Below are positions 13,555 through 17,974 of a stretch of DNA of 25,512 nucleotides, one piece after another (within the stretch, counting starts at the first letter, position 1; each line of letters begins with the position of its first letter). The notes under the pieces were generated by a model. The model was not told the origin of the DNA. It made no database searches and was given only the letters and a program-made list of their open reading frames with translations. Origin of the DNA: a virus. Taxonomy: Duplodnaviria; Heunggongvirae; Uroviricota; Caudoviricetes. The translations under genes were made by a program, and so were the position numbers. The DNA is taken from positions 1-25,512 of the IMG/VR virus record IMGVR_UViG_2627853638_000001. One strand, written 5' to 3'.

Positions 13555-13857
13555 ATGAGCAGAAAAAACCAACGTTACTCTAAAGAGTTCAAAGCCGAAG
13601 CTGTCAGAACGGTTCTTGAAAATCAACTTTCGATCAGTGAAGGCGCTTCCCGATTATCCCTTCCTGAAGGCACTTTAGGACAATGGGTTACCGCCGCCAG
13701 AAAAGGGCTCGGTACTCCTGGTTCCCGCACGGTGGCTGAACTGGAATCTGAAATTCTGCAACTGCGTAAGGCGTTAAATGAAGCTCGCCTTGAGCGAGAT
13801 ATATTAAAAAAAGCAACAGCGTATTTTGCACAGGAGTCGCTGAAAAATACGCGTTAA
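13555..13857 (+). CDS. IS600 OrfA (HTH transposase component)
   Basis: MSRKNQRYSKEFKAEAVRTVLENQLSISE..., a typical IS3-family OrfA. Confidence 0.85.
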   Translation: MSRKNQRYSKEFKAEAVRTVLENQLSISEGASRLSLPEGTLGQWVTAARKGLGTPGSRTVAELESEILQLRKALNEARLERDILKKATAYFAQESLKNTR

Positions 13858-13892
13858 TCGAACAATGGCGACAACAATTTCCCATTGAAGCG

Positions 13893-14711
13893 ATGTGTCA
13901 GGTATTTGGTGTATCCAGGAGCGGTTATTACAACTGGGTACAGCATGAACCCTCAGACAGAAAACAAAGTGATGAGCGGCTAAAACTGGAGATTAAGGTG
14001 GCACATATCCGCACTCGCGAAACATATGGAACCCGGCGGCTCCAGACGGAGCTGGCAGAGAATGGCATCATCGTTGGTCGTGACCGACTGGCACGTCTTC
14101 GTAAGGAGCTAAGGCTACGCTGTAAGCAGAAACGCAAGTTCAGAGCGACTACGAACCCGAACCACAATCTGCCAGTTGCGCCAAATCTGCTGAACCAGAC
14201 GTTCGCTCCTACAGCACCAAATCAGGTCTGGGTGGCGGACCTGACGTATGTTGCCACACAGGAGGGATGGTTGTACCTCGCTGGCATCAAAGATGTTTAT
14301 ACGTGCGAAATTGTCGGCTACGCCATGGGAGAGCGCATGACAAAAGAGCTGACAGGTAAAGCCCTGTTTATGGCGCTCAGGAGCCAGCGCCCACCTGCCG
14401 GGCTAATCCACCACTCTGATCGAGGTTCACAGTACTGCGCATACGATTACCGGGTCATACAGGAGCAGTCTGGTCTGAAAACATCAATGTCGCGTAAAGG
14501 TCACTGTTACGACAACGCTCCGATGGAAAGCTTCTGGGGAACGCTGAAAAATGAGAGCCTGAGCCACTATCGTTTTAATAACCGGGATGAAGCCATCTCA
14601 GTAATACGGGAATACATTGAGATTTTCTACAATCGTCAGCGTCGTCACTCTCGTCTGGGGAATATCTCCCCGGCAGCCTTCAGGGAAAAATATCATCAGA
14701 TGGCTGCTTAA
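13893..14711 (+). CDS. IS600 OrfB (DDE transposase catalytic domain; normally expressed as an OrfAB fusion by -1 frameshift)
   Basis: DDE/rve-type motifs (...HSDRGSQY...); lies in the -1 frame relative to orfA. Confidence 0.85.
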   Translation: MCQVFGVSRSGYYNWVQHEPSDRKQSDERLKLEIKVAHIRTRETYGTRRLQTELAENGIIVGRDRLARLRKELRLRCKQKRKFRATTNPNHNLPVAPNLLNQTFAPTAPNQVWVADLTYVATQEGWLYLAGIKDVYTCEIVGYAMGERMTKELTGKALFMALRSQRPPAGLIHHSDRGSQYCAYDYRVIQEQSGLKTSMSRKGHCYDNAPMESFWGTLKNESLSHYRFNNRDEAISVIREYIEIFYNRQRRHSRLGNISPAAFREKYHQMAA

Positions 14712-14754
14712 AAAAAGAACAAATGGTAGTGTCCGCTATTGCCAGTACACCTCA

Positions 14755-15511: not shown

Positions 15512-15919
15512 TTACCTCCAGATCCGTTGCTGGAATGTGCAGGACGGACGCGGTGGCCGTTCGGAATAAGGGAGCCTGACGAAGATTATCCAGTGACGAT
15601 AATCGAGACTGAGGGCTTTCTTAATCTCGTATCCGTGTCTGCGGTAGCGCTGAATCAGCCATTCAGCCTGTTCTTCGGTGCAGGGGTCGTGCTGATACCA
15701 GTCAGATTTGAATGCATGAGAACGCCGCCCGTGCCTGCTGGCAGGCGCGGCAGAGTTATCCGAATTGTAAAATTTGGTATCGTGCGCCATCTGTTTTCTC
15801 TGCTGGCGCAGCAGGTGCCAGTTGTTCAGGCTGACGGATGGATTGTAAACCAGAACGACCAGAAAAAACAAAACCCGCCGAAGCGGGTTAAGTGCGGGTG
15901 CGTTGAGGATGCCTGACAC
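15512..15919 (-). CDS. Hypothetical prophage protein between hokD and the YdfU-like fragment (start uncertain)
   Basis: ORF only; about 1 frame offset from the downstream ORF, so it could also be the frameshifted N-terminal part of the same gene. Confidence 0.3.
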   Translation of the reverse strand: MSGILNAPALNPLRRVLFFLVVLVYNPSVSLNNWHLLRQQRKQMAHDTKFYNSDNSAAPASRHGRRSHAFKSDWYQHDPCTEEQAEWLIQRYRRHGYEIKKALSLDYRHWIIFVRLPYSERPPRPSCTFQQRIWR

Positions 15920-15957
15920 ATCAGCGGTGGCGAGGGATTTCTCCCCCGCCGGGTCTC

Positions 15958-16113
15958 TTACTCCTCAGGTTCGTAAGCTGTGAAGACAGCGACCTCCGTC
16001 TGGCCGGTTCGGATTCGTACCTCGCAGAGGTCTTTCCTCGTTACCAGTGCCGTCACTATGACGGTTAAACAGATGACGATAAGGGCGATTAACATCGCCT
16101 TTTGCTGCTTCAT
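15958..16113 (-). CDS. hokD: Hok/Gef-family membrane toxin HokD (RelF), 51 aa
   Basis: MKQQKAMLIALIVICLTVIVTALVTRKDLCEVRIRTGQTEVAVFTAYEPEE matches K-12 HokD as I recall it. The longer track ORF is an in-frame upstream extension. Confidence 0.85.
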   Translation of the reverse strand: MKQQKAMLIALIVICLTVIVTALVTRKDLCEVRIRTGQTEVAVFTAYEPEE

Positions 16114-16764
16114 AGCCTGCTTCTCCTTGCCTTTCGGCACGTAAGAGGCTAACCTACATGTGTTCAGCATGGATTGAGCCTCAGATTAATGTTAAGCGTC
16201 TTGCAGGACGCGTAGTGTTAACTGGGGCTTTTCTCTATCTGCCTTTTGGTGTTCATGCCTGAGACAGATAGCCTCAAGCACCCGCAGTCATTCTACTTAA
16301 CTAAGATTTCCCTGCAAACCGTTTTTGTCCGGCACAGTAAATATCCAACTAAACCAATAGCGTTCGCTGTATTTACCGCCAGTATTCAATGCACATGACC
16401 GCCATGAACACCCCTAAAAAAAGGGCATTTATATGTCCAAACATTAATATCAAAACATCAATTTTTTCCATATACCTTGCTGTGAAGATGATGGGCATAC
16501 ATGATGCGAACAACCAGAACGCAACAAACAAAAACTGCAATGCGTTTTTCATTATTCCCCCTACAATCAATGTGCAATAACATTTAAACACACCTCAATT
16601 TGGCCGGACATATAAATATCTAAACCAGAAAAAATCACTTACATAGCGTTACAAACTCTTTAGTCTAAATACTCATCGTAAAACATTCCCCATACTTATC
16701 AGTCCGTTCCGCGCCAGGTAGCTTATTGCCTTATCTGGCAACCTATAATCAGGTTTCCGCTTTT

Positions 16765-17206: not shown

Positions 17207-17261
17207 GGTAATGCTGCCAACTTACTGATTTAGTGTATGATGGTGATTTTAAGGTGCTTGC

Positions 17262-17537
17262 GTGGCTTCCATTTCCATCAGATGTCCTTCCTGCTCCGCT
17301 ACTGAAGGCGTGGTGCGTAACGGCAAAAGCACTGCCGGACATCAGCGCTATCTCTGCTCTCATTGCCGTAAAACATGGCAACTACAGTTCACTTACACCG
17401 CCTCTCAGCCCGGTACGCACCAGAAAATCATTGATATGGCCATGAATGGCGTCGGATGTCGCGCCAGTGCACGCATTATGGGCGTTGGCCTCAACACGGT
17501 TTTACGTCACTTAAAAAACTCAGGCCGCAGTCGGTAA
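17262..17537 (+). CDS. insA: IS1 InsA
   Basis: [37 protein letters not shown]... (zinc-finger/HTH). Confidence 0.9.
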
Positions 17538-17959
17538 CCTCGCGCATACAACCGGGCAGTGATGTGATTGTCTGCGCTGAAATGGACGAACAGTGGGGCT
17601 ACGTCGGTGCTAAATCACGTCAGCGCTGGCTGTTTTACGCGTATGACAGGATACGGAGGACGGTTGTGGCGCACGTCTTCGGTGAACGCACTCTGGCCAC
17701 ACTGGAGCGTCTTCTGAGCCTGCTGTCGGCCTTTGAGGTCGTGGTATGGATGACGGATGGCTGGCCGCTGTATGAATCACGCCTGAAGGGAAAGCTGCAC
17801 GTTATCAGCAAGCGTTACACTCAGCGCATTGAGCGACATAATCTGAATCTGAGACAACATCTGGCAAGGCTGGGACGGAAGTCACTGTCGTTCTCAAAAT
17901 CGGTGGAGCTGCATGACAAGGTCATCGGGCATTATCTGAACATAAAACACTATCAGTAA
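17456..17959 (+). CDS. insB: IS1 insB reading frame (expressed as InsAB' transposase by -1 frameshift)
   Basis: Matches InsB; frameshift site TTAAAAAAC at 17510-17518. Confidence 0.85.
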
Positions 17960-17974
17960 GTTGGAGTCATTACC

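Follow-up and report, generated by a model that had tools for sequence, protein, structure and literature searches.

The DNA analyzed here, in the following called the window, is a stretch of 25,512 nucleotides of the virus record IMGVR_UViG_2627853638_000001, and at positions 15958-16113 it encodes a toxin of the Hok family. The gene lies on the minus strand, so that its upstream side corresponds to the higher coordinates 16114-16370; an earlier, sequence-only reading of this DNA had left the strand unstated. The following features were assigned at the locus:

15862..15889, minus strand: intrinsic terminator with a 7-bp GC-rich stem and a T run (terminator scan)
15866..16283, minus strand: predicted full-length hok mRNA of ~418 nt (fold prediction)
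15896..15908, minus strand: fbi element, CCUCAACGCACCC, complementary to tac (duplex ranking)
15929..15950, minus strand: 3'-UTR hairpin, putative end of the processed (truncated) mRNA (9-bp stem in the full-length and truncated folds)
15958..16113, minus strand: hok toxin gene, HokD allele, 51 aa (ORF translation, Pfam, comparison with K-12)
15958..16170, minus strand: mok frame of 70 codons in frame with hok, consisting of the 19-aa extension MLNTCRLASYVPKGKEKQA and Hok (ORF translation)
15972..15975, minus strand: TACG motif at the Hok Tyr47 codon, a TadA A-to-I editing site (Tyr to Cys) as reported for K-12 hokD (read from the sequence)
16108..16283, minus strand: match to Rfam RF01794, "sok antitoxin (CssrC)" (115.6 bits, E = 5e-26)
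16127..16128, no strand: homology breakpoint with K-12, where everything above 16127 is relE/relB (alignment)
16127..16155, plus strand: probable Sok promoter, TTGCCT, 17 nt, TAACCT (read from the sequence)
16162..16232, plus strand: Sok antisense RNA antitoxin, 71 nt (aligned from the sokW misc_RNA of NC_000924)
16179..16182, minus strand: mok Shine-Dalgarno sequence GAGG, mRNA nt 102-105, 8 nt upstream of the mok AUG (read from the sequence)
16222..16230, minus strand: ucb or anti-Shine-Dalgarno box, mRNA nt 54-62, AAGCCCCAG (fold prediction)
16272..16283, minus strand: tac element, mRNA nt 1-12, GGGUGCUUGAGG (folds and duplex ranking)
16290..16318, minus strand: predicted hok/mok mRNA promoter, TTTGCA, 17 nt, TAGAAT (consensus promoter scan)

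The hok reading frame translates to MKQQKAMLIALIVICLTVIVTALVTRKDLCEVRIRTGQTEVAVFTAYEPEE (51 aa, minus strand, 15958-16113) and matches the Pfam family Hok/Gef (PF01848) with E=3e-23 and 81.6 bits against a cut-off of 22. The peptide shows 100% amino acid identity to HokD of Escherichia coli K-12, and the two genes are distinguished by a single synonymous nucleotide change. The sequence-only reading had described an intact 51-aa hokD, which is confirmed by both comparisons. It was reported that the HokD coding sequence, which is the same as here, is toxic when overexpressed (bioRxiv 10.1101/2025.08.07.668861). The TadA editing motif TACG is conserved at the Tyr47 codon (window 15972-15975, minus strand), and for the K-12 hokD mRNA ~6% Tyr-to-Cys editing was reported (PMC5630033, PMC12214031). 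A strongly hydrophobic ORF of 72 aa (16373-16591, minus strand) is located in the AT-rich DNA that adjoins the hok promoter on its upstream side; a Pfam search with this ORF gave no match. In some related genomes a "hypothetical protein" is annotated in this area, and in E. coli FDAARGOS_944 no gene is annotated at this place.

Upstream of hok, a consensus scan of positions 15700-16700 found only one promoter-like site, the sigma-70-like TTTGCA-17-TAGAAT. Its -10 hexamer is the same in hokW of phage 933W and its position is kept in other hok loci. The promoter ends 7 nt upstream of the conserved 5' end of the mRNA, and this conserved end together with position 1 of the Rfam model would place the transcription start at ~16283. 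The covariance model RF01794 is matched over its full length (1-157) with 115.6 bits against a gathering score of 59. Because the last part of the model consists of the hok Shine-Dalgarno sequence and AUG, the model is written on the strand of the hok mRNA and describes the hok leader; a match to this "sok" family thereby indicates where the locus is but assigns the antitoxin to the wrong strand. Within the leader, the mok frame starts with the ATG at 16170, its layout agrees with the annotated, collinear mokW/hokW of 933W, and the nucleotide sequence of the mok-specific part is the same as in 933W. The mok Shine-Dalgarno sequence has its counterpart in plasmid R1, where it is also GAGG (PMC9841398). 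Downstream of hok, the terminator is the only terminator-like site found by the scan of 15700-16700, which places it at 15889-15872 on the minus strand. The cassette matches 79 phage records, including the Stx phages 933W and VT2-Sakai (Sp5), with 93% identity over 90% of the query, and the 933W record NC_000924 annotates mokW, hokW and a 71-nt "SokW antisense RNA".

The Sok segment aligned from this annotation carries two substitutions in 71 nt relative to sokW of 933W (97% identity), and the stretch from the Sok segment to the hok ATG is 100% identical with 933W. Sok is complementary to nt 52-122 of the mRNA and spans ucb, the mok Shine-Dalgarno sequence and the mok AUG. Its predicted fold consists of a single-stranded 5' tail of 14 nt, a long hairpin and a U tail (z = -3.9). 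The position of the Sok promoter was deduced from the annotated start of sokW: the candidate hexamers overlap the hok Shine-Dalgarno region, are the same as in 933W and end 6 nt before the annotated sokW start. The consensus scan of 15700-16700 did not detect this promoter, the hexamers of which are weak with 4/6 and 3/6 consensus matches. For Sp5, sokW expressed from its own promoter was shown to neutralise the toxic HokW (Takada et al. 2021, PMC8621323), and mutation of the sokW -10 element resulted in loss of antitoxin activity. Both hokW and sokW RNAs were seen on northern blots, and the hokW-sokW locus was reported to bring about earlier lysis upon prophage induction (PMC8621323).

The segment complementary to Sok behaves like a unit that is swapped between loci. 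Compared with the window, the locus annotated "gef" in the PPompW phage (L010:320-684) is 99% identical in the hok CDS and 97% in the 3' UTR and only 44% identical in mRNA nt 52-122, while 933W (L002:2544-2930) is 97% identical in this segment and 94% in the CDS. This pattern suggests that Sok segments are exchanged by recombination at the conserved flanks, possibly with diversification of antitoxin specificity as the outcome.

In the hok/sok family, according to the summary in PMC9841398, tac and fbi lock the mRNA while ucb sequesters the mok Shine-Dalgarno sequence, and 3' trimming leads to tac/ucb pairing, mok translation and Sok binding. For the full-length mRNA (418 nt) the minimum free energy (MFE) is -171 kcal/mol, with z = -7.9 against shuffled sequences; in this fold nt 1-12 (tac) are paired with nt 376-388 (fbi), closing the 5' end on the 3' end, and nt 55-58 and 60-62 (ucb) are paired with the mok Shine-Dalgarno region at nt 100-107, so that the Shine-Dalgarno sequence is sequestered. 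An RNA ending at nt 358, i.e., after the 3'-UTR hairpin, shows in its MFE structure pairing of tac nt 1-8 with ucb nt 54-60 and an unpaired mok Shine-Dalgarno sequence; the tac/ucb stem is not part of the centroid structure. This end was chosen by analogy with R1, in which the equivalent hairpin shields the truncated Tr-hok mRNA from exonucleases (PMC9841398). All folds are thermodynamic predictions, and the MFE structures are of low ensemble frequency. A 5'-3' closed mRNA and a tail-hairpin Sok are what structure prediction for fold-back and antisense elements, as proposed in the sequence-only reading, yields here.

The pairing of the mRNA ends was also ranked by duplex energy. In this ranking fbi comes first among 313 candidate duplex partners of the 5'-terminal 13 nt of the mRNA (-19.8 kcal/mol), and in 7/8 hok loci the 3' element is the top partner of the 5' 13 nt. 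The eight loci compared were those of the window, 933W, the PPompW phage, an IncY plasmid, hokC, an Atlantibacter plasmid, an R1-type plasmid and K-12 hokB; another R1-type locus (L005) and the Enterobacter (L006), Raoultella (L013) and two Salmonella (L011, L014) plasmid loci were left out because they are truncated by IS elements or an integrase or have an altered 3' end. The ranking was done for each locus separately instead of counting pairs by alignment column, because MAFFT misaligned fbi of R1 and Atlantibacter. Compensatory changes are found between tac and fbi, namely GGGUGC/GCACCC in R1-type loci vs GGCGC/GCGCC, and a change from G-C to A-U in hokB. The differences between the window and hokW in the paired regions examined are structure-neutral, such as a U-G pair replacing C-G in the 5' hairpin.

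The presence, the order, the conservation and the predicted pairing are thus on record for every element of the cassette. We conclude, with a probability of roughly 90%, that 15862-16318 represents a complete hok/mok/sok type I toxin-antitoxin cassette with a hokD allele, directly homologous to hokW-mokW-sokW of 933W/Sp5. Transcription, 3' processing, Sok action and toxicity in this host would follow by homology with R1 and Sp5, an intact architecture being no proof of activity. By the same homology (R1 hok/sok, Sp5 hokW-sokW), a constitutive promoter would drive synthesis of the ~418-nt mRNA, in which tac at the 5' end would be locked to fbi at the 3' end and the mok Shine-Dalgarno sequence would be held by ucb, so that the RNA would be neither translated nor bound by Sok. 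Slow trimming from the 3' end would remove fbi, tac would then pair with ucb and the mok Shine-Dalgarno sequence would become exposed. Synthesis of Hok would require translation of mok, which is here in frame with hok. Sok, an unstable RNA of 71 nt that is transcribed in the opposite direction under the control of its own promoter, would pair with the region of the mok Shine-Dalgarno sequence and AUG, thereby blocking translation and leading to cleavage by RNase III. Hok, a membrane-depolarising peptide, would then be made only once the supply of Sok ceases, for example when the element is lost, transcription stops or the prophage is induced.

In the prophage Qin of K-12 MG1655 the gene order is relB-relE-hokD, and it was correctly stated in the sequence-only reading that hokD is the third gene there. 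The same reading found no relE or relB reading frame upstream of hok in the window. This holds: a tblastn search with K-12 RelE and RelB over six frames of the whole 25.5-kb window gave nothing better than E=5. A short-word blastn search with the K-12 relB-relE-intergenic DNA over the whole window gave a sole match of 14 nt (16114-16127), which directly abuts the hok ATG on its upstream side, and neither search detected relE/relB remnants in the window. Consequently, the idea that the locus is a degraded K-12-type relB-relE-hokD operon, with relBE decayed beyond recognition, was rejected and can be practically dismissed. It can draw on the shared hokD allele, 3' UTR and terminator only, while residual similarity to relBE is zero at the protein and the DNA level and the upstream DNA is 93-100% identical to hokW-type leaders.

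The sequence-only reading had instead regarded hok as an orphan toxin gene, with no cognate antitoxin and a mechanism left unidentified after the loss of relBE. The absence of relB and relE fits such a view, as does the fact that annotation pipelines call only "hokD" here in related genomes, with no sok feature. However, the ~170 nt upstream of the gene are a full hok leader with promoter, tac, mok and the Sok gene, and relBE would never have been part of the ancestral locus, of which the K-12 form appears to be a truncated derivative. Based on the RF01794 match, the alignment with 933W and the relBE search, an orphan hokD was rejected and is very improbable. Of what had been said about its control, the possibility of a mok/sok-like mechanism proved well founded, while control can no longer be called unclear, since the leader elements as well as fbi and the terminator in the 3' UTR were identified.

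Alignment of the upstream DNA, as had been proposed, showed that homology to K-12 ends 14 nt before the hok ATG and that identity to plasmid R1 is ~30% in the Sok segment. The K-12 relB-relE-hokD (relBEF) operon shares with the window the identical HokD protein, a 3' UTR with fbi that differs by two substitutions and a terminator with identical stem and slightly different T run, and its neighborhood in Qin is equivalent, with a DUF968/ydfU gene downstream. Unlike in the window, rem sits between hokD and ydfU, and K-12 hokD keeps only 14 nt upstream of its ATG, the promoter, tac, ucb, the mok start and sok being replaced by relBE. Compared with the relBEF type, the window has no relB/relE frames directly upstream of hok, and its hok is equipped with a leader, mok and sok. 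In the K-12 annotation there are entries for mokB/sokB and sokE and none for a mok or sok of hokD, and a passage of PMC12214031 that cites Pedersen & Gerdes 1999 attributes the inactivation of K-12 hokD to a rearrangement of the genome.

In a set of 5426 complete E. coli genomes, 1167 have the relE-hokD junction of K-12 and 4286 have the promoter-leader-sok segment of the window type; the latter occurs in up to 9 copies per genome (median 2). The arrangement of the window is therefore carried by most genomes and, as all other hok loci are built in this way, it is probably also the ancestral one. Judged from these comparisons, the K-12 relBE-hokD operon is a rearranged, truncated derivative in the minority of the genomes; the unusual form is that of K-12, and the choice of this operon as reference state in the sequence-only reading has to be abandoned.

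A truncation reciprocal to that of K-12 was observed in E. coli G4/9 (L004, NZ_CP060073.1; match 2001-2588), in which the leader, sok and the upstream spacer are retained up to the hok ATG, the hok CDS is missing and the site is directly adjoined by a partial ISNCY transposase gene. Together, G4/9 and K-12 suggest that the hok Shine-Dalgarno/ATG region is a recurrent breakpoint. In the prophage of FDAARGOS_944 (L003 14807-15291) a pair of relB/relE-family genes is located by the repressor genes, at a distance of ~5.5 kb from hokD and in the opposite orientation, showing that a related prophage has a relBE module at another place in its early region. This segment is absent from the window.

Strain FDAARGOS_944 is the closest E. 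coli relative (99.8% identity), and the locus lies there in a lambdoid prophage, flanked on one side by ead/Ea22-like and replication genes and on the other side by a small hypothetical gene, DUF968, RusA and Q. In the window, the cassette sits at the junction of the early region and the nin region of a decayed, IS-riddled lambdoid prophage. The wider surroundings contain the following features:

6027-6246, minus strand: IS009 (Rfam match)
6987-7166, minus strand: CssrB sRNA, RF02799, 228.9 bits (Rfam)
7294-8937, plus strand: IpaH-type effector gene with LRR_TTSS and NEL E3-ligase domains
13555-14753: IS3-family element with orfA (100 aa) and orfB (272 aa), truncating the DUF968 gene
17207-17974: IS1 with a 9-bp target duplication (alignment to the relative)
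~21897-22664: second IS1, beside a deletion (alignment to the relative)

The second IS1 is associated with the loss of the ydfA-dicB segment that is present in FDAARGOS_944. CssrB is encoded directly upstream of the IpaH-type gene; this E3 ligase gene and CssrB, together with the IS content, indicate a chromosome of the Shigella type. For CssrC in S. flexneri 301 a northern band of ~340 nt, transcribed from the same strand as its neighbors, was reported (PMC3071730). This size is consistent with the hok mRNA and far above the 71 nt of Sok, and the band indicates that the homologous locus is transcribed in Shigella.

It is conceivable, though we hold it to be the less probable case, that the cassette is intact and yet physiologically silent, a cryptic passenger of a dead prophage whose conservation reflects recent descent instead of selection. 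The prophage is heavily decayed, as shown by the two IS1 copies, the IS3-family element in the DUF968 gene and the missing immunity/dicB segment, and in the literature the chromosomal hokA, hokB and hokC failed tests of post-segregational killing and rifampicin treatment. Formation of Cys at the Tyr47 codon amounts to only ~6% for K-12 hokD, and native toxicity may be low. On the other hand, no regulatory element is disrupted despite IS insertions on both sides, the differences from the functional hokW locus in the paired regions examined are structure-neutral, the CssrC northern blot shows the homologous S. flexneri locus to be transcribed, and the HokD coding sequence is toxic when overexpressed. 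As a textbook hok/mok/sok cassette with the hokD allele, the locus implies no new biology.

A further and rather speculative idea, which we consider unlikely, is that the cassette acts as an addiction module holding the IS-riddled prophage remnant, and that the exchange of Sok segments reflects selection for antitoxins that do not cross-react. If the former were true, the ipaH effector gene ~7 kb away would be held as well, and it would be explained why the cassette alone escaped disruption. If the latter were true, 44% identity in Sok vs 99% in the CDS would reflect selection for distinct specificities among the 2-9 hok copies per genome. For annotation, K-12 is a misleading reference for hokD, its relBE-hokD operon being a rearranged remnant, and pipelines that label only "hokD" and omit mok and sok make complete type I loci look like orphans.

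The locus of the window belongs to the same sequence family as CssrC of Shigella flexneri 301, which is part of the RF01794 seed, and in both cases CssrB is encoded not far away in a setting of the Shigella type; cssrB and cssrC are ~17.8 kb apart in strain 301 and 9.1 kb apart in the window. The hok/mok/sok (parB) locus of plasmid R1 has the same architecture, including the predicted tac/fbi and ucb/mok Shine-Dalgarno pairings, the 3' hairpin and, in the MFE structure of the truncated window RNA though not in its centroid, the tac/ucb pairing (PMC9841398), and its antisense Sok likewise covers the mok translation-initiation region. In contrast to these similarities, nucleotide identity to R1 is only ~50% in the CDS and ~30% in the Sok segment, and HokW, which differs from the window Hok at four residues, was reported to be 44% identical to R1 Hok (PMC8621323). 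The tac element of R1 begins with GGGUGC, with the matching change in fbi, that of the window with GGCGC. Furthermore, mok of the window is an in-frame N-terminal extension of hok in a chromosomal prophage, whereas the R1 locus resides on a plasmid. The loci hokC(gef)/mokC/sokC and hokB/mokB/sokB belong to the same family with the same order of elements and conserved tac and fbi, and mokC is in frame with hokC as mok is with hok in the window. Identity to the window CDS is 83% for hokC and 51% for hokB, their Sok hairpins are unrelated, and unlike the window locus both occupy fixed chromosomal sites outside prophages.

The closest known system is hokW-mokW-sokW of 933W, with the same order of elements and 93% identity over ~440 nt (window 15886-16329). 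The mok-specific part and the hok Shine-Dalgarno sequence are identical, mok is in frame with hok and the carrier is a lambdoid phage in both cases. The Hok proteins differ at four C-terminal residues (..FTAYEPEE in the window, ..FVDYESEK in 933W), and 933W possesses no GC-hairpin terminator after fbi, whereas the window and K-12 have one. The 933W locus is positioned near the end of the genome beside a gene of the YgiW/YdeI family. The locus of the window is placed between the ead/Ea22-like early region and the DUF968/nin region, in a host prophage that, unlike 933W, is defective.
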